The notes beneath the pieces are model-generated. The model saw only the letters and a list, made by a program, of their open reading frames with translations. It was not told the origin of the DNA and did not search any database. From Pseudomonadota bacterium (lineage in GTDB: Bacteria > Pseudomonadota > Gammaproteobacteria > Burkholderiales > JAJZQI01), in NCBI GenBank assembly GCA_021847305.1, contig JAJZTZ010000001.1, positions 1 through 58,104 of the forward strand: 58,104 nucleotides of DNA. Direction: 5' to 3'. The number at the start of each line of letters is the position of its first letter. Position 1 is the first letter of the stretch. Shown piece by piece: positions 1 to 8,306 of the stretch. The translations under genes were made by a program, and so were the position numbers.

Positions 1-153
1 TAAGGGGCATCACGCCCGTGATGCGGTCTACGGACCCAGTCAGTCGACTGTATTTCCTGAAGTGAGAATCACAAAACCATCTTGGGAGTGAAGCGGAATC
101 GCCGCAGTGGGAAAAACGTGGCCTGCGAAAAATCTAAAAAGGGGTTTTTATAC

Positions 154-225
154 AGCTTGAACGTTTGAATTCAGCGGACGGCAAAAGCGCAGCTTTTGAC
201 GGTCCGCTGGAATGATTTGTTAGCT
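154..225 (-). repeat. attC site 1
   Basis: + strand reads AGCTTGAAC GTTTGAATTCAGCGGACGGC [AAAAGCGCAGCTTTT] GACGGTCCGCTGGAATGATTT GTTAGCT. It is an imperfect hairpin with a bulged G on the right arm. The right box GTTAGCT is complementary to AGCTAAC at 638-644. Confidence 0.75.
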
Positions 226-632
226 TACTCATCCTTGCGCATGGCCTCGGAAATTGGTGAGAAAAATGCAAGTGCAAGAATGGCACCGTCAGTTAAACCT
301 GTGAGAGAACCCACTAGGTTGTCTAATGGGACAGTGATGGCCATACCGCTAAAGGGAACAGAGGCAACGCTTACTACAACAATGGCGAGTAGCAGCCAAC
401 GCCCCCAAGACAAGAACAATAAAAGGCCAATAGAAGAGACAACTTTCCCAAGCCCAATGGATAGGTAAAAGAAGGGGTGTTGTGTCCATGAATGGGAGCC
501 ATACCCGCCCCACGCCAGGAGGTTGGACACTTCCTTGGGGAATGCTCGTGGCGAATAGGGCAAAAAGAACCAAAGCAGGTAGGAAACCAGCGAGGCCAAA
601 ACGAGTAATTGGAATATGCGAGTGCGCGCCAT
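225..632 (-). CDS. Hypothetical small polytopic membrane protein (135 aa), cassette A
   Basis: This is the C-terminal 135 codons of track ORF 225..1121. An ATG at 632 lies 5 nt inside the cassette. The sequence MARTRIFQLLVLASLVSYLLWFF... has 3-4 hydrophobic segments. The rest of the 298-aa ORF crosses two attC sites and is discarded. No clear SD. Confidence 0.55.
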   Translation of the reverse strand: MARTRIFQLLVLASLVSYLLWFFLPYSPRAFPKEVSNLLAWGGYGSHSWTQHPFFYLSIGLGKVVSSIGLLLFLSWGRWLLLAIVVVSVASVPFSGMAITVPLDNLVGSLTGLTDGAILALAFFSPISEAMRKDE

Positions 633-637
633 GTGAA

Positions 638-701
638 AGCTAACGTTTAAGCTCAGGCGCGGCGCGCTTTTGCGCCGTCGCGCTGGAGCGCAGGGTTGGG
701 C
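638..701 (-). repeat. attC site 2
   Basis: AGCTAAC GTTTAAGCTCAGGCGCGGCGCGC TTTT GCGCCGTCGCGCTGGAGCGCAGG GTTGGGC. The two boxes of this site are not complementary to each other, but each matches the box across the adjacent cassette. Confidence 0.8.
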
Positions 702-724
702 GTGAAGACAATCGGAGAGAGAGC

Positions 725-973
725 ATGAAACTTGAACAAGTTGAGGTAAATAAAGAACAACTGAAGCTGGCAGAAGAAGCGCTACGGCGAGCAGGCGCTG
801 AATTAAAAACTGCATGGACACTGCTGAAGCACAATGGGATGGAGCCGACGGCAAAAGAACTGGCAGACACTGTGCTTGATGTGGAAATTTCAGCGGATCA
901 ACTGCGCGAATTTTTGACGCCCAACGTTCAAGGTAACCGGCCTGCCGCGCTTTTTGCGGCAGGTCCGGGTTGA
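725..973 (+). CDS. Hypothetical 82-aa helical protein, cassette B (inverted relative to inferred attC polarity)
   Basis: ATG is preceded by GGAGAGAGAG. The sequence MKLEQVEVNKEQLKLAEEALRRAGAELK... is charged and coiled-coil-like. The ORF ends inside attC 3. The antisense 76-aa ORF is Ser/Leu-rich and looks spurious. Confidence 0.45.
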   Translation: MKLEQVEVNKEQLKLAEEALRRAGAELKTAWTLLKHNGMEPTAKELADTVLDVEISADQLREFLTPNVQGNRPAALFAAGPG

Positions 974-987
974 CCGCAGGGTTGGGC
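919..987 (-). repeat. attC site 3
   Basis: GCCCAAC GTTCAAGGTAACCGGCCTGCCGC GCTTTTT GCGGCAGG-T-CCGG-G-TTGACCGCAGG GTTGGGC. The right arm carries unpaired T and G. Confidence 0.85.
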
Positions 988-993
988 GTCGCG

Positions 994-1398
994 CTACCGA
1001 GAGAGGGCATACCGTAGGCCATAGCCACCAAGAGTGGGTACGAACACGAAGGCCGCTTTTGAGTACCAACGCGCATACCACATGGGCTCGTCGCCAAGCG
1101 AAAACCCGAATTGGATTTCACCGGTTGCTTGAGCGGACCAGTAATCGAGTGCAGGGAAGAAAGCCCAGACTAGACCACCTATCAGAGCTGGAATTACTTG
1201 ACCAAGGGACAACACGTCAAATTTCAGCAGCGCGATACAGACGGCAAGTACTCCTCCAACTCGAAGGAGAACAGAGAGGCTGGTTTCAAAATTGACGTTG
1301 ATTGCGCCGGAAAACTTCCAGACTCCGAGAGCCAGCAGGCCGACGACAACTACTGCGATTACGACAAAAGCGTTTTCATCATTTGAACTGTTGCTCAC
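994..1398 (-). CDS. Hypothetical small membrane protein (134 aa), cassette C
   Basis: A GTG at 1398 is preceded by AAGGAGG with a 7-nt spacer. The ATG used by the ORF track (1437) lies inside the attC 4 core box. The sequence ...AFVVIAVVVVGLLALGVW..., GGVLAVCIALL, ALIGGLVWAFF has several hydrophobic segments. Confidence 0.55.
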   Translation of the reverse strand: MSNSSNDENAFVVIAVVVVGLLALGVWKFSGAINVNFETSLSVLLRVGGVLAVCIALLKFDVLSLGQVIPALIGGLVWAFFPALDYWSAQATGEIQFGFSLGDEPMWYARWYSKAAFVFVPTLGGYGLRYALSR

Positions 1399-1425
1399 TG
1401 CAATGCCTCCTTGGAGAAATGAGAT

Positions 1426-1498
1426 GCCCAACGTCAAAGCTCAGGGGCAGGACAAAAGCGCAGCTTTTGGCCTGTCCCTCTGGAGCGCCGTGTTGGGC
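1426..1498 (-). repeat. attC site 4
   Basis: GCCCAAC GTCAAAGCTCAGGGGCAGGAC [AAAAGCGCAGCTTTT] GGCCTGTCCCTCTGGAGCGCCGT GTTGGGC. The extra bases are on the right arm. Confidence 0.85.
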
Positions 1499-1523
1499 GA
1501 CATTGACTCACCATGTACGCAGC

Positions 1524-1778
1524 TTATTTGATTACAGCTAACCAAGCCGCAACTGCACTTACAAGTGAGGCAACAGCAGAAAATACGGCCACCAGCCAAA
1601 GACGGTGCTCACGCAGGTGCCGTTCAGCTTCCAGTACCCGGCGTTGTAATTCATAGTCATCAGCAATTATCGGCACGTTCCCACGGCCTGGAACGACTAC
1701 CGACTGGTCTGTTTCCATGATGACACCCAATTGCTCAGCTCTTTTTCGTAGCGCATCGCCGACGAGAAGTTTTTTCAT
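1524..1778 (-). CDS. Hypothetical 84-aa tail-anchored protein, second gene of cassette D
   Basis: The ATG lies 2 nt after the stop of the upstream M48 gene. A soluble N-terminal part has a helical stretch (DYELQRRVLEAERHLREHR). A single C-terminal TM segment follows (LWLVAVFSAVASLVSAVAAWLAVI). Confidence 0.6.
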   Translation of the reverse strand: MKKLLVGDALRKRAEQLGVIMETDQSVVVPGRGNVPIIADDYELQRRVLEAERHLREHRLWLVAVFSAVASLVSAVAAWLAVIK

Positions 1779-1780
1779 CT

Positions 1781-3016
1781 CTATTCACCAATCAATTGAA
1801 CATAGACCGGGCGAATGGAAACTGAGCTGTACCGAATTTGCTTCAACGGAATGCCGAATTCCTTCTGTTCGTAGGGCTGCATGGGAGACCATGGAATTTC
1901 ATCTCTCATCAGGACCATCTGACCATTCAGATATTCCAGGGCGACAATAGCATGCGAGATTTGCTTCCCGGAGGTGTTGACCGCAACACCGAATAAACCC
2001 CGCCCCCCACCGCTTGCGTTTGCAACCTGCAACCTTAAAAATTGGAGTCTTTGCGCAGCAAGGCGTTGCTGTTCCAGTTGTTTCGTTTGGCGCTTAAGCT
2101 GTTCCGTCTTGGCTTCCGTTGCCTCTACATAGGAATTTGCAACTGTTTCGAGCAGGGCCGCAAATCCGCCTCCTTCGCCAGCCTTGGCCGTTGAAGGTTT
2201 GCTGTACGAATAAAGGGCATTGTTCGTCAGAAGCTTTTCGTGCTCCGGGTTGATTTCGCCGGGAACAAGATATTGCTGTACCGCAGAAGCGTATTTCACC
2301 ATGTTCTTGGCGCGATCATCGTTGAGCGGGTGATCGAACATCATGTCGCCTGTATAGCTCCCCATCGCTTGGTGCATGCGGTTCCATACCCGGACACCCA
2401 CTGAGGGGTCGTAACCCGCTAAAGCCAAATAAAGGGTGGAGTACTTGTCCGCTTCGGCTTCTTGGTTCGTGGTAAAGCTGGCGTCAAAGCCTTTTTCCTT
2501 TCTCAGCCCTTTGTCGGCGAGCTTGGCAATCGCCAACTTGCCTCCCTTCTCGCTAGCGTGGCGAGCGGACACATGGGCCATTTCATGAGCGAGAACAGCA
2601 GCCAGTTCGCTGTCATCTCTGAGGCCAACTTCGCCCTGAAAAATTCCGGAGAAAACAAACATTTTTCCTCCCCCAATTGTGAAAGCGTTCCATTCTGGAG
2701 AATCCAAAACGTGGACTTCCCAGGGTAGTTGCTTTCTATGCGTCACTGTTTTCAGGCGATTGAATACACGATTGACCCTCTCGTAGTAAGGCGTTTCTCC
2801 GTCAATTTTTATCCCTTTTTGCTTTGCTTGGGACAATATCTGTCGCTGCGCTTCTTCCGCTTGGCGGATTTCTTGCTCCTCAGAGACGAGATTAATCTGA
2901 CGCTGGCCGGTTACAGGGTCACGCGACGAGACGCCATCACTGACTGCCATCATGCCTTTATCGATTGAGGCGCATCCTGTGAGCGCGACGACCAGAACAA
3001 CAGAAAATAGCCGCAT
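1781..3016 (-). CDS. M48-family zinc metalloprotease-like lipoprotein with an uncharacterised C-terminal extension, cassette D
   Basis: The lipoprotein signal MRLFSVVLVVALTGC has lipobox LTGC. The HExxH motif is in LAHEMAHVSARH (His codon at 2585-2587). An SD-like AAGGTGG lies 6 nt before the ATG at 3016. The C-terminal ~150 aa (coiled coil plus beta-rich part) is not recognisable. Confidence 0.8.
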   Translation of the reverse strand: MRLFSVVLVVALTGCASIDKGMMAVSDGVSSRDPVTGQRQINLVSEEQEIRQAEEAQRQILSQAKQKGIKIDGETPYYERVNRVFNRLKTVTHRKQLPWEVHVLDSPEWNAFTIGGGKMFVFSGIFQGEVGLRDDSELAAVLAHEMAHVSARHASEKGGKLAIAKLADKGLRKEKGFDASFTTNQEAEADKYSTLYLALAGYDPSVGVRVWNRMHQAMGSYTGDMMFDHPLNDDRAKNMVKYASAVQQYLVPGEINPEHEKLLTNNALYSYSKPSTAKAGEGGGFAALLETVANSYVEATEAKTEQLKRQTKQLEQQRLAAQRLQFLRLQVANASGGGRGLFGVAVNTSGKQISHAIVALEYLNGQMVLMRDEIPWSPMQPYEQKEFGIPLKQIRYSSVSIRPVYVQLIGE

Positions 3017-3081
3017 GTCGAACCACCTTTCCTTACGTGTCCTGCCCTCAAATATTGCTTGCATAGAACGCCTCTCTTGTC

Positions 3082-3147
3082 GCCCAACGTTTGAATTAAC
3101 CGGCTGGCGCGCTTTTGCGCCAGTCCGGGTTGAATGATGGGTTGGGC
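3082..3147 (-). repeat. attC site 5
   Basis: GCCCAAC GTTTGAATTAACCGGCTGGCGC GCTTTT GCGCCAG-T-CCGG-G-TTGAATGATGG GTTGGGC. Confidence 0.85.
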
Positions 3148-3155
3148 ATAGCCGA

Positions 3156-4091
3156 CTACTCCATAAGCTGCAAAATGCCGAGAGCCTTTCCTGTTAACTC
3201 CCTTGTTGAGTTTGGCGTGATGTTGGAAACCCCAAGGCTTGCAAGGTCAGCCTTCACATCTTTCCAGAGGTAGTAGGTATCGTCAGAAGAGACTTCAAGG
3301 TAAAACCGTGTCCATTTGTCTTGGTCTTGGCGGTGGAGGATGGGAGCAGCTTGATATACATGAACGTATTTTCTGGTACCGCGTTTCTCAGTATATGCCT
3401 CGACAACCAAGTCACCCGGTTTTGCTTCTGATCGGAAGCGGGACTTGCCAGACCAACGAATTGAACGTACCTCATAGCCATCTTTTTCGACGTGCTTTTC
3501 TGCTTCCTCAAGCCCTTGTAGCTCGAATGACTCCTCGGCACTGGTGATTCGTTCGCTAAGCTGGCGCGTTGAAATAAACCACACGCGCGATTCACCAACA
3601 GTTATTTTCTTCTTGCTTTGGCGGCTAAAGCCGGAGGCGCGGACAACTGGCAGTGCTTCTATTCGCTGAAGAAACTCCTCAGTAACTTGGATGGACTCGC
3701 TCTTGACGTTCTCGATGAATCCTTGAACCAAGCCCGCAATTTGAGAGTCGTCTGTGAATAATGAAGCTTCGCAGGTGCCGACACCTGCATTTTCTGAAAG
3801 ATTCGCAGATCCAATTAACGAGTGGTTGTCGATGACGGCCACTTTAGAGTGCAATCCATCGAAGGAATAGAGTTCGGCTCCTTGATCGAAGAATGCTCGC
3901 AGAACTGAGGCCGATGTTAAGCCGCCTTTGATTGCATCATCGGATGCGTCACAGATAAGTAAATCGCCTTGGCGGAAATCAAGGTGTCGCGCTGTCACAT
4001 AAGAAATGGCGGCGCGTATGCGTTTGTGGTTTGCCGATTGCTGAGACAACTCAGCCCACAGGTCATCACTCAGGAGCGTTTTCATAGTCAT
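3156..4091 (-). CDS. Single-HKD phospholipase D-family (Nuc/BfiI-like) nuclease domain fused to an unknown ~170-aa C-terminal domain, cassette E
   Basis: The motif LHSKVAVIDNHSLIGSANLS fits HxK(x)4D(x)5GSxN (nt 3801-3851). The N-terminal ~135 aa resembles PLDc_2. The start is uncertain: TTG at 4103 lies inside the attC core, and ATGs occur at 4091 and 4085. No SD. Confidence 0.8.
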   Translation of the reverse strand: MTMKTLLSDDLWAELSQQSANHKRIRAAISYVTARHLDFRQGDLLICDASDDAIKGGLTSASVLRAFFDQGAELYSFDGLHSKVAVIDNHSLIGSANLSENAGVGTCEASLFTDDSQIAGLVQGFIENVKSESIQVTEEFLQRIEALPVVRASGFSRQSKKKITVGESRVWFISTRQLSERITSAEESFELQGLEEAEKHVEKDGYEVRSIRWSGKSRFRSEAKPGDLVVEAYTEKRGTRKYVHVYQAAPILHRQDQDKWTRFYLEVSSDDTYYLWKDVKADLASLGVSNITPNSTRELTGKALGILQLME

Positions 4092-4097
4092 AGAAAT

Positions 4098-4163
4098 GCC
4101 CAACGTGGAGTTGAGCGAGCGGAGCGCCGCAGGCGCGGAGTCCGCTCGAACGGAGGGTTAGAT
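4098..4163 (-). repeat. attC site 6
   Basis: GCCCAAC GTGGAGTTGAGCGAGCGGAGCGCCGC AGGC GCGGAGTCCGCTCGAACGGAGG GTTAGAT. The boxes are non-complementary within the site. Each matches its neighbour cassette box. Confidence 0.8.
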
Positions 4164-4458
4164 GCTGCACATTTACACAGCGAAGTTTCAATCGGCAACG
4201 GATTACCTTGACCAGTGCGGTGAGGTTGAATTCCGTGGCGGGTTTGAGCCGGAGAAGCTGATTTACGCCGACTGCTGCGGGAAACAACGGCCAGCAAAAG
4301 ACTGTGTTGTGCAGTGCTACTACGATGGCCAGAGCATCTGGTGCGCACCTGAAAAGGGCTGCAAAGACCCGCAAGTGATTGCGGCGAAGAAGGCACGAGA
4401 GTTTGCGAATCGGAGTGCAGGACAAAAGGCTCGATGGGCGAAGGCATCTAACGTTTAG
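4162..4458 (+). CDS. Hypothetical Cys-rich 98-aa protein, cassette F (inverted)
   Basis: The ATG overlaps the GTTAGAT box. Seven Cys fall within ~50 residues (DQCGEV, DCCGK, KDCVVQCYYDGQSIWCAPEKGC), followed by a basic C-terminal tail. The two 119-aa antisense ORFs cross attC 6 and look spurious. Confidence 0.45.
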   Translation: MLHIYTAKFQSATDYLDQCGEVEFRGGFEPEKLIYADCCGKQRPAKDCVVQCYYDGQSIWCAPEKGCKDPQVIAAKKAREFANRSAGQKARWAKASNV

Positions 4459-4509
4459 CTTAAGGGGCGCGCGGCTTTTCGCGCGTCCCGCTTGAAGCGC
4501 CTGTTAGGC
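4446..4509 (-). repeat. attC site 7
   Basis: ATCTAAC GTTTAGCTTAAGGGGCGCGCG GCTTTTC GCGCG-T-CCCGC-TTGAAGCGCCT GTTAGGC. The reverse complement reads GCCTAAC..CTTCAAGCGGGAC...CCCTTAAGCTAAAC GTTAGAT. Confidence 0.85.
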
Positions 4510-4524
4510 GCTATTGGAGGAAAG

Positions 4525-4716
4525 ATGAAACCGAAAGACATTATGTTTTCCGTGAACGAATACGACCGCGATGGTGATTGCACCGACAAGGGTGTATTCC
4601 TCCATTTCGGAGAAACGAAGGTAAAGGCTGCGGACGGCATCAAGGAATTTGCCGAGATCGTGCGCCACTTCGAGGCGATGGTGGAAGAAATTGAAACCAA
4701 CTATGCGGACGCCTAA
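4525..4716 (+). CDS. Hypothetical acidic 63-aa protein, cassette G (inverted)
   Basis: The ATG is preceded by GGAGGAAAG. The sequence is MKPKDIMFSVNEYDRDGDCTDKGVFLHFGETKV... The stop TAA lies inside the GCCTAAC box. The track ORF starts earlier (4492), inside attC 7. Confidence 0.45.
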   Translation: MKPKDIMFSVNEYDRDGDCTDKGVFLHFGETKVKAADGIKEFAEIVRHFEAMVEEIETNYADA

Positions 4717-4760
4717 CGTAAATTAGGCGGCGTTGGAAAAGTGGTGTCACGCCGCCTAAA
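4711..4760 (-). repeat. Degenerate terminal attC-like hairpin (half site)
   Basis: The sequence is GCCTAAC GTAAATTAGGCGGCG [17-nt loop] CGCCGCCTAAATCTA. The inner box is complementary to GTTAGGC at 4503-4509. There is no outer core box and there are no bulged bases. Confidence 0.55.
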
Positions 4761-5025
4761 TCTATTTATTAAATTTATATCCATTAAATAACAATAACTT
4801 AATAATCGCATTTGCTTTTAACCCAACCTAAAAAAATGCGGATGAAAGTTCATGTTCTACATAAACATCCTTGCCCTTCCTGCCATGATATGCGGACATT
4901 TGGATTATGACAAATGATTGGATTTATCACTTATTTTCACTTCAACAAGAGCGTGCCAAAAGACAAAACAGAGCCCGTGGCCTTAGGGTTCTGGTCGCGA
5001 AGGGATAAAACGGACTAACAGGAAT

Positions 5026-5079
5026 GGCGCAAAGCCGAGATACCGCATTAAACGGTATCTTGATGGCTTGCTTTGTGCC
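5026..5079 (-). terminator. Compound hairpin downstream of gltX (putative terminator)
   Basis: The inner stem is AGATACCG/CGGTATCT (5038-5060). The outer stem is GGCGCAAAGC/GCTTTGTGCC. Only a weak U-tract follows on the - strand. Confidence 0.4.
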
Positions 5080-5090
5080 CTAACCGAAGG

Positions 5091-6485
5091 TTAGGAAGCG
5101 GACAGGGCGTTGAGCTGGCGGCGCAGGCGGGTCAGCACTTCATCTTTGCCGATGAGTGCCAGAACGGCATCGATGGAGGGGGTTTGCGGTTCGCCGGTGA
5201 CCAGCACGCGCAGGGGCATGGCCACCTTGGGCAGTTTCAGGCCGTGTTCCGCGACGATGGCTTTCATCACGTCGTGAATGGCTTCGCGGGTCCAGTCGAT
5301 GGCTTCAAAGCGGTCGGCCACTTGTTGCATCACCGGCAGAATGTCTGCACCGACGTGCTGTTCGATGACGGCGGGTTCGGCATCCAGCGGTCGATAGAAA
5401 TACACGGCCGCATCGGCCAGTTCTTCAATGGTGTTGACGCGTTCTTTCAGCAGGTCGATGACCAGCGGCAGGGCCGGGCCATGGCTCGGGTCGCATTCGT
5501 CGCGCAGCAGAAAGGGGCGGACCAGTTCCGACAAACGGTTGCTGTCGGCCTGCTTCAGGTATTGCTGGTTGATCCAGTTGAGCTTTTCCGGGTTGAAGCG
5601 GGACGGAGAGCGGGAGATGCCTTCCAGATTGAACCATTCGGTAAACTGGTCCATGGTAAACACTTCTTCGTCGCCTTTGGCCCAGCCCAGGCGTGCCAGG
5701 TAGTTGAGCAGTGCCTCGGGCAGGTAGCCGTCTTCTTCATACTGCATCACGCTGACCGCGCCGTGGCGCTTTGACAGCTTTTCCCCGTCGTGTCCCAGAA
5801 TCATCGGTACGTGTCCGTACTTGGGCAAGGGGGCGCCGAGCGCCTTGAGGATGTTGATCTGGCGCGGTGTGTTGTTGACGTGGTCGTCGCCGCGAATCAC
5901 GTGGGTGATTTGCATGTCCCAGTCGTCCACCACCACGCAGAAGTTGTAGGTAGGTGAACCGTCCGAGCGGGCAATGATCAGGTCGTCCAGCTCGCTGTTC
6001 TGCACAATGATCTGCCCTTTCACCAGGTCGTCGATGACAACGGCGCCGTCGAGCGGGTTCTTGAAGCGGACAACCGGTGACACGCCGGTCGGGGGCGTGG
6101 CGGTTGAGTCGCGCCAACGACGGTCGTAGCGGGGTTTCTCGCCTTTGGCCATCTGCTCTTCGCGCATGGCATCGAGCTCTTCCTTGCTGGCGTAGCAGTA
6201 ATAGGCTTTGCCTTCGGCCAGCAATTGGTCGATCACTTCCTTGTAGCGATCCATGCGCTTGGTCTGATAGAAAGGACCTTCGTCGTAGTCGAGCCCAAGC
6301 CACTTCATGGCATCGAGAATGACCTGGGTGTTTTCCGGGGTGGAGCGTTCCAGATCGGTGTCTTCAATACGCAGAACAAAGGTACCCTTGTGCCGGCGAG
6401 CGAATGCCCAGGAGAACAGGGCAGTACGGGCGCCGCCCAAGTGCAGATAACCGGTGGGGCTGGGAGCGAAACGGGTGCGGACCAT
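5091..6485 (-). CDS. gltX: Glutamyl-tRNA synthetase
   Basis: 464-aa ORF. The N-terminus [20 protein letters not shown] carries the HIGH-type motif. KLSKR is the KMSKS-type motif. Confidence 0.96.
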
Positions 6486-6645
6486 GGCAGTGAGCTGAGT
6501 GAATCAAAGCCGCTATTTTACGCAATAACTGGCAATGCCGCCATGTTGCAGCCGAGGTAAAGAGGGGGCCAGTGCTGGCAGAAGTGGTTCTAGGTGGGCT
6601 GGGAGCGATCTGCTACCATGCGCCAGCTAGAGCGCTATATTGTTT

Positions 6646-7578
6646 ATGACAACACTGGTTAATACCGCCACACACCGGCAGGATGCATTCTGGGGAATTC
6701 TCTTTTCCCTGTTGGCCGCTATTGGTTTTTCCATCAAGTCCATTCTGGTCAAGCTGGCCTATGTATACGTGGTGGATGCAGTCACCTTGCTGACCCTGCG
6801 GATGGTCTTCTCCGTGCCGTTTTTTCTGATGATCGCCTTCTGGGCTGGGGCCCGCCAGCAGGAGCCGTTGCAAAAACGGAAGTGGCTGGTGATCGGTGCG
6901 CTCGGCTTGGGCTATTACCTGTTCAATTATCTGGATTTTCTCGGCCTGCAGTATGTTTCCGCCGGGCTTGAGCGGCTGATCCAGTTTCTCTACCCGACTT
7001 TGACGGTGGTGCTGGCGGCCTTGCTTTATCGTCGGGCTATCTCCTCCAAGGTGATTGCCGCCATGCTGCTCAGTTACGCCGGTATCGCCATGGTGTTCAT
7101 GCATGATGTGCGGGTCAGCGAGAGTGGAATTGTGCTGGGCGCGTCGCTGGTTTTTGCCAGTACGCTGTTCTACGCGATCTATCTGGTGGGGGCGGGGCAC
7201 TCGATTGCACGCATGGGAACGGTGAGATTCACGGCTTATGCGATGCTGATCGCCAGCACCATCAGCGTGAGTCAGTTTGCCCTGACACACCCGCTGACAG
7301 CGCTGGTGCAACCCGCGCCGGTGTATCAGCTGGCCTTTATGATGGCGATCTTTTCCACCGTTTTGCCGGTATTCCTGTTAACGGCCGGTATCCGCCGGAT
7401 CGGTTCCGGCGAGGCTTCTCTGATCGGCTCGATCGGCCCGGTGTTTACCATTTACCTGGCGCATGTGTTCCTTGATGAGCATGTTTCTGCCTTGCAAATC
7501 GGCGGGTCGCTTCTTGTATTGGTCGGTGTGGTTGCGGTCAGTCTGAGCAGCCGCAGCGATGTTCGGCCGATCAGCTGA
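6646..7578 (+). CDS. EamA/DMT-family transporter
   Basis: ~310 aa with about ten hydrophobic segments in a two-fold arrangement. ATG at 6646 (TTG at 6640 is also possible). Confidence 0.8.
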   Translation: MTTLVNTATHRQDAFWGILFSLLAAIGFSIKSILVKLAYVYVVDAVTLLTLRMVFSVPFFLMIAFWAGARQQEPLQKRKWLVIGALGLGYYLFNYLDFLGLQYVSAGLERLIQFLYPTLTVVLAALLYRRAISSKVIAAMLLSYAGIAMVFMHDVRVSESGIVLGASLVFASTLFYAIYLVGAGHSIARMGTVRFTAYAMLIASTISVSQFALTHPLTALVQPAPVYQLAFMMAIFSTVLPVFLLTAGIRRIGSGEASLIGSIGPVFTIYLAHVFLDEHVSALQIGGSLLVLVGVVAVSLSSRSDVRPIS

Positions 7579-7587
7579 TCTGCCCGA

Positions 7588-8106
7588 TTATCTCGCCTCC
7601 GGCGGACCATGACGTTTCTGTTCTGCCAATGGCAAGGTCAGCGTTTCCTTCACTTCTTCCATCACGATATAGCTTCTTGATTCCTGCGCGCCGGGCAGCG
7701 TGAGCAGAATGTCGCCCAGCAAAGTCCGGTAATCCGACATTTGCGGAATGCGCGCCTTGACCAGGTAATCAAAGTCACCCGAAACCAGATGACATTCCAG
7801 CACGCTGGGCAGTTTGATGATTGCCCGTTTGAACTTCTCGAAAATGGTCCCTGACTTGGCGGACAGCTTGATCTCGACAAACACCAGCAGGTTGAGGTCC
7901 AGCGCATTGGGGTCGATACGGGCGTAGTAGCCCAGAATGACGCCCTCTTTTTCCAGGCGCTTTATCCGCTCCCCGCAGGGCGTGACTGACAGACCCACTT
8001 TTTCGGCCAGATCGGTGATGGAAATACGGGCGTCTGTTTGCAGGATGGAAAGAATTTTACGGTCGATATTGTCCAGTTCGCGGACGGCATGGGTGCGGAT
8101 TCTCAT
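7588..8106 (-). CDS. lrp: Lrp/AsnC-family transcriptional regulator
   Basis: LDNIDRKILSILQTDARISITDLAEKVGLSVTPCGERIKRLEKEGVILGY...LLVFVEIKL closely parallels E. coli Lrp. It is divergent from dadA. Confidence 0.9.
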   Translation of the reverse strand: MRIRTHAVRELDNIDRKILSILQTDARISITDLAEKVGLSVTPCGERIKRLEKEGVILGYYARIDPNALDLNLLVFVEIKLSAKSGTIFEKFKRAIIKLPSVLECHLVSGDFDYLVKARIPQMSDYRTLLGDILLTLPGAQESRSYIVMEEVKETLTLPLAEQKRHGPPEAR

Positions 8107-8306
8107 AGGATTTTACTGTGTAGTTAAAATTGCTGGAATTTTTATGATTACATAATGAATATATATTGTCAGTCAAAAAATATGCAATTTTTTACTGGAT
8201 AATCTGGAAATATAGAAAATTCACCTGGCGGGTGAGGCGTACACTCTGGCCGTAATAGGGCTGTAAAAGGCCATTTATCGAGATGGGCTTCTTCTGGGGG
8301 TGTGGG

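Follow-up and report, generated by a model that had tools for sequence, protein, structure and literature searches.

Clusters of attC sites lacking an integron-integrase are known as CALINs (Cury et al. 2016, PMC4889954), and loss of intI is one origin proposed for them. An intI pseudogene is recognisable near 5% of CALINs, the other 95% being without one, and for most cassette arrays that lack an integrase it has yet to be settled how they arose (PMC4889954). Beyond a few classes, attI is unknown for most integrons, and it was not searchable in that survey (PMC4889954). The class 1 promoter Pc is found within the 5' portion of intI1, at codons 30-32 and 38-39, 223-252 bp from the crossover (PMC2791841, PMC8876359). 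Decayed integrons of Xanthomonas with an inactivated intI are described in a preprint (bioRxiv 10.1101/2025.06.18.660453).

The array on contig C170 fits the definition of a CALIN and, as regards its origin, is a decayed chromosomal integron; elements of this kind are known. It resembles CALINs in having at least two attCs (seven here), no nearby intI and cassettes mostly of unknown function; it differs from them in keeping a recognisable attI, the intergenic region and a candidate cassette promoter. Its likeness to the class 1 platform (Jove et al. 2010, PMC2791841; PMC8876359) lies in a G/TTRRRY core (here and below the slash marks the crossover), in inverted and direct IntI boxes, which are putative here, and in the placing of a promoter, on C170 a candidate, that has a 17-nt spacer and falls early in the integrase gene; its distance from the crossover is 168-196 nt on C170 and 223-252 bp in class 1. 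Unlike class 1, C170 has an attI without sequence identity to attI1, a long perfect inverted repeat and no intI. The decayed integrons in the Xanthomonas preprint (10.1101/2025.06.18.660453) are likewise arrays fixed beside a housekeeping gene whose integrase has been lost or inactivated; the differences are that intI is almost wholly deleted here, not mutated, and that three such platforms occur in one small genome.

Layout and polarity of the array

The window, meaning the whole stretch of DNA analysed (58,104 nucleotides), is the entire contig C170 of a MAG (G000) that has 184 contigs and is 85% complete and 5.9% contaminated. At position 1, on its distal side, the array is truncated by the end of the contig. 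GC content is 0.375-0.46 across window positions 4701-5100, against 0.58 for the MAG. The features around the other end of the array are as follows.

4446 to 4509, + strand (bottom strand on +): attC closest to the integrase end, 71.6 bits with covariance model R1
4510 to 4716, - strand: first cassette, starting TTAGGC (4716 to 4711), with bounds set from box complementarity
4711 to 4717, - strand: composite core site G/TTAGGC, crossover between 4717 and 4716
4715 to 4726, + strand: attI signature AAC/GTAAATTAG, where relatives read AAC/GTAAAGTAG
4723 to 4759, no strand: 11-bp inverted repeat with a 15-nt loop, arms 4723-4733 and 4749-4759
4790 to 4803, no strand: conserved AT-rich block (ATAACAATAAC.TTA), kept in C170 and C160
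4814 to 4835, + strand: palindrome-like site TTTTAACCCAACCTAAAA, directly before ATG 4836; in relatives, before the intI start codon
4836 to 4995, + strand: putative former intI start codon (ATG 4836) and possible decayed stub of about 50 codons
4913 to 4885, - strand: sigma-70-type promoter candidate TTGTCA-17-TATCAT, Pc-like, aimed into the cassettes
5026 to 5079, - strand: hairpin 3' of gltX, candidate weak terminator, -13 kcal/mol, z = -3.2
5091 to 6485, - strand: gltX (glutamyl-tRNA synthetase), domains tRNA-synt_1c and Anticodon_2

All seven complete attCs in the window lie on the + strand, and covariance model R1 was built from them. When R1 was searched in loci of same-order relatives with a full-length intI, all matches at E <= 0.01 had intI 3' of the model strand. 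Because the window's R1 matches are on +, intI and attI should be sought rightward of 4760, which agrees with the polarity proposed in an earlier note on this DNA; by attC strand polarity the junction site is the integrase-proximal end of the array. An intI just left of the window, which that note had allowed for, is not compatible, since beyond the left contig end the polarity would be wrong. The complementarity that it had pointed out is read directly: GTTAGGC at 4503-4509 pairs, as reverse complement, with the junction box GCCTAAC at 4711-4717. The first cassette contains a 63-aa ORF (4525-4716, + strand) that is inverted relative to the array and had no match in a Pfam search. With seven attCs, and with the 58-kb contig free of any tyrosine recombinase (no match to PF00589), the array is of CALIN type and integrase-less within its assembled extent, as the earlier note had also read it.

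The 3' end of gltX does come next, and the gene is transcribed toward the platform, as previously described. The DNA between the two (4761-5090) had been called AT-rich and non-coding with ORFs of at most about 24 codons; the composition holds, but the longest ORFs in 4740-5090 are 34 codons. Similarly, the weak hairpin reported at 5026-5079 folds, but like every other site in 4400-5300 it lacks the GC-rich stem, short loop and T run of an intrinsic terminator. A search of positions 1-7000 against Rfam returned nothing relevant and no RNA family in the AT-rich junction.

A probable attI site at the array head

The rightmost repeat forms a stem without bulged bases, as the earlier note stated; by folding it has 11 perfect pairs, against the 10 bp given there: TTAGGCGGCG(T) pairs with (A)CGCCGCCTAA (-14.3 kcal/mol, z = -2.8). 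The core site is split, G being the attI side and TTAGGC the cassette side, and a 5-nt spacer separates the crossover from the inverted repeat. The two arms are probably the putative IntI-binding boxes of attI, an inverted box and a direct-repeat box, to which IntI would bind. The AT-rich block at 4790-4803 resembles an IHF site and may be one.

The relatives compared share only the order with the MAG, and none of the species genomes searched is closely related to it. Most of them read xxxxAAC/GTAAAGTAG at the first cassette, followed by ACACCCTAAA-type boxes, and beside an intact intI their attI motif is AAC/GTAAA.TAG. In most of them a TTTAGGGCA.CCTAAA site stands 107-116 nt past the crossover, directly before the intI ATG; in the window, the spacing from crossover to the palindrome-like site is 109 nt, and ATG 4836 is placed as the intI start codon is in relatives. 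The same-order sedentary chromosomal integrons with intact intI (L017-L029, L126-L149) thus have the crossover motif of the window and share its spacing to the intI-side site, its R1-type attCs and its polarity. They differ in keeping a 315-aa IntI (>400 bits against TIGR02249), where the window has no intI, and in most of them the box ACACCCTAAA takes the place of the window's GGCGGCG hairpin.

Position matrices were derived from 29 relatives only and scored over 4.75 million MAG positions. The attI 12-mer and its C160 copy were the only two of these positions to reach >= 19.4 bits. For the intI-proximal matrix, C183:2197 ranked first, C160:5000 second and C170:4814 46th (13.3 bits). When the two motifs had to occur together, 100-125 nt apart, exactly three matches in the MAG remained against 0.12 expected (C170:4715, C160:4901 and C183:2088), each of which heads an attC array. 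In an nhmmer search with a whole-platform profile of the 29 relatives, C183 was the best match (E = 2e-8); C160 came at rank 2 (0.23) and C170 at rank 4 (0.8), and all three align colinearly from profile position 1. Homology to attI regions beside an intact intI is therefore carried by the 12-mer and by the joint motif and spacing; by the profile alone, and with its palindrome ranked 46th, the C170 platform would be a marginal match. The case for attI is one of motif, spacing, position and paralogy combined.

Nine of the 29 relatives, and 1.7% of shuffles, have a perfect inverted repeat of 8 bp or more no further than 70 nt from the crossover. In two loci (L017 and L132) repeats of 11-12 bp begin at +4/+5, and the repeat of the window begins at +5. 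Since repeats of this kind recur near the crossover, the hairpin is, by this comparison, a normal feature of attI sites in these integrons.

The sole other homologue of the hairpin-type attI is at G217:C6:223095-223240 (L151; E = 1e-9), which first appeared as a weak BLAST match and was later confirmed as homologous; it has no adjacent intI and no attC detected within 1.5 kb. The intact integron of the same genome has a related box, TTAGACGG, after the crossover. No copy of the hairpin-type platform was found beside an intact intI. Apart from G217, BLAST of the 210-nt element against 400 genomes of the order gave AT-rich chance matches only, a denser scan of the family of G217 gave two chance matches, and an exact 18-mer gave five chance matches in JGI metagenome contigs.

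From this evidence we conclude that 4711 to about 4835 is most likely an intact attI together with the attI-intI intergenic region, the rest of intI being gone. The earlier note had proposed a deletion of intI, attI and proximal cassettes. Loss of intI stands; attI appears to be retained with its intergenic region, which leaves no sign that proximal cassettes were lost.

The TTTAGGGCA.CCTAAA palindrome directly precedes the intI start in many integrons (for example L018, L135 and L139, at about 110 nt), and in L022, L026, L131 and L134 it is absent and a LexA-box-like CTGT-N8-ACAG is present in the intergenic region. Such a palindrome could be an operator of an alternative kind, or else a site for IntI. 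As another candidate, 4717-4917 was considered as an ORF-less cassette and rejected, there being no inverse core or attC at the far end of either copy.

Three platforms without intI in one MAG

BLAST of 4700-5095 against the MAG aligned 4713-4854 with C160:4899-5040 at 74% identity (E = 9e-19), and conserved blocks extend to 4917 (4715-4917) in platforms that differ by 26% overall. The homology begins exactly at the C of 4717, the crossover. On the cassette side the bases differ (GCCTAA in C170, ATCTAA in C160) and the cassettes are unrelated. Array-head homology that starts at the crossover next to unrelated cassettes is the behaviour of attI and not of a cassette site. The hairpin stems of the two copies are identical and their loops differ.

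The C160 platform (L058, 4897-5103) heads a complete array of five attCs (1498-4346). It adjoins a gene for a 159-aa protein (5134-5613, - strand), followed by urea ABC transporter and urease genes, with ordinary genes on the opposite side of the array; on the long contigs of other assemblies, no intI was found within 10 kb of this array. A third platform, on C183 (L059, 2084-2380), is of the canonical type TAGACACCCTAAA and has at least one cassette, with an attC at 1594-1666 on one side and the lysS terminator on the other. In all three, the cassette-side box is complementary to the attC box of the first cassette itself. Aminoacyl-tRNA synthetase genes (gltX at C170, lysS at C183) have their 3' ends directly beside two of the three platforms.

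The junctions are reproduced in independent assemblies: L119 is identical across the C170 junction, L121-L125 cover the C160 junction and L150 is 99.9% identical to C183. The junctions are thus not products of misassembly. The cassette order is identical in L119 and L120.

Absence of the integrase gene

An adjacent divergent intI with the IntI-specific domain is absent at the C170 platform. Across the MAG, TIGR02249 matched only XerC/D-like proteins, on C79 and C16, far below the cut-off, and neither intI nor fragments of it were found on the 184 contigs with TIGR02249, tblastn of 13 IntI proteins, or protein and DNA profiles. The genome-wide search that the earlier note had called for was therefore negative in a MAG that is 85% complete. 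Around all three platforms, tblastn and the protein and DNA profiles detected no flanking IntI remnants. In none of the relatives did gltX adjoin intI.

Past ATG 4836, one frame has colinear traces of an IntI N-terminus, namely HDMRT (4884-4898), DWI (4916-4924) and FH.K..PKD (4935-4964), which were not significant in a shuffle test (p about 0.10). They would be consistent with a decayed intI stub reaching to about 4995.

A candidate cassette promoter

The site at 4913-4885 is the only promoter-like site in 4400-5300 and has 10 of 12 consensus matches; one promoter-like site is expected by chance in an interval of this length. All three MAG platforms combine TTGTCA with a TAnnAT -10 box at a 17-nt spacing, 168, 168 and 215 nt from the crossover, and a TGACAA block is among the few conserved platform blocks. 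Among 29 relatives, eight have any consensus-like promoter, and these are at scattered positions. Since it is not general in relatives with an intact intI, we treat the promoter candidate as a feature of the lineage and not as ancestral. As in class 1, the promoter would lie roughly over matching codon remnants (HYS.RT, Y.DW), a likeness that depends on the non-significant stub.

Promoter activity is predicted for 4913-4885. The earlier note regarded read-through from gltX as the only obvious external promoter for the colinear cassettes. With a cassette-directed candidate common to three platforms, read-through from gltX is not the only possibility and would not be needed. Cassettes colinear with the candidate (a PLD-type nuclease, an M48 protease pair and others) are probably still expressed, and the inverted cassettes G, F and B would need promoters of their own.

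Recurrence in the order

IntI scored over the cut-off in 164 of 400 sampled genomes of the order. A survey with the strict two-motif pattern, which is a sample and not a census, gave 27 places in genomes other than the MAG. A full intI is adjacent in 14 of them, two retain nothing of IntI but residues 1-41 or 16-46, and the remaining 11 lack it, two to four of these looking like chance matches. Nine intI-less places, in at least seven other genomes, head attC arrays with the right polarity. Every such genome (seven to nine genomes) has an intact intI above the cut-off elsewhere, which makes it likelier that the incomplete MAG also contains one.

Five intI-less platforms of relatives, in other genera, keep decayed intI codons to just past the HGKRHP motif; in their profile matches, homology to intact platforms runs for 106-127 nt and no further. 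The deletion ends in these loci (L161, L167, L169, L179 and L178) appear to be clustered. In L161 (G075), L167 (G340), L169 and L179 (both G304) and L178 (G182) the stub stops no more than about 25 nt past the HGKRHP codons, at a point just upstream of the promoter-like site TTGCCA-17-TTTAAT of the cassette strand.

Alternative explanations

The earlier note had read 4711-4760 as an attC halved by a deletion that took intI, attI and the proximal cassettes, with the array driven by read-through from gltX. The missing outer box (there is no GTTRRRY past the right arm), the lack of bulged bases and the failure to find intI are all as that reading has them, and the first two were correctly described. 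However, the attC model R1 scores the repeat at only 10.3 bits, and reaches even that by leaving out about 50 of its positions, and the spacer after AAC is GTAAA, as in the attI of relatives, and not the GTTTRA of the window's attCs. What would be a half site is, moreover, conserved with about 200 nt of flank at the head of a second array (C160), where the similarity stops at the crossover; a palindrome site follows at the spacing typical of attI; and a conserved promoter candidate is present. We regard a halved attC as highly improbable. Still more improbable is that the hairpin and the AT-rich DNA have nothing to do with an integron and belong to the gltX terminator or intergenic region, or to a REP-like palindrome. 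The stem motif alone does occur in 53 unrelated palindromes from other phyla (among all GTDB species genomes), but none of the 53 shares the flanks, the C160 copy is not beside gltX, terminator features are lacking and every place that passes the joint motif test is an array head.

A retained attI platform is also compatible with a different account of its present state, to which we give close to an even chance: intI lies in the unassembled 15% of the genome, and the three platforms are satellite arrays recombined in trans and not frozen. The nine other genomes with such platforms all have, at another locus, an intI that scores above the cut-off, intI is often at contig ends in draft genomes, the MAG is incomplete (85%, with 5.9% contamination), and the C170 and C160 platforms have conserved blocks despite a difference of 26%. 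Against this stand the lack of any intI fragment on the 184 contigs, by protein or DNA profile, and the same cassette order in L119 and L120. A further possibility, tentative and on balance unlikely, is that platforms of attI and promoter stripped of intI are a maintained state, as selected expression modules or landing pads, with the integrase elsewhere if anywhere. It would draw on the three platforms without intI in the MAG, on the blocks conserved between platforms that differ by 26%, and on the clustering, in several genera, of deletion ends upstream of a promoter-bearing intI stub.

Proposed history and significance

Under the retained-attI reading, a chromosomal integron would have lost intI, with attI and the attI-intI intergenic region left behind as a platform. 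The deletion would have removed intI beyond its start codon and, at most, a decayed stub, up to the gltX terminator region, and the first cassette would have been placed by an ordinary attI x attC insertion. The predicted promoter at 4913-4885, in the stub region, would transcribe through attI into the array, and colinear cassettes would stay expressed without read-through from gltX. Without IntI the array could not change; were IntI supplied in trans, by an unassembled integron or an incoming element, attI might still accept cassettes.

The C170 array and the two other arrays of the MAG would offer a direct view of an origin by deletion of intI alone, in which attI is recognised by comparison with related intact integrons and an expression and insertion platform is left in place. 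The value of the C170 case lies in its clarity as an example and in the attI signature. The two-motif signature finds similar cases in the order, which permits a simple sorting of CALINs by origin and lets one ask whether CALINs stay targets of a trans-acting integrase.

Elsewhere on the contig, the window is identical to the independent assembly L119 over 3469-5800, and nearly all of the 74 differences between the two fall in 7200-7735 (one is near 5800), a locally hypervariable stretch that covers the end of an EamA-type transporter gene and the next ORF. A short intergenic AT-rich island (GC 0.37-0.38) lies at 8001-8300.
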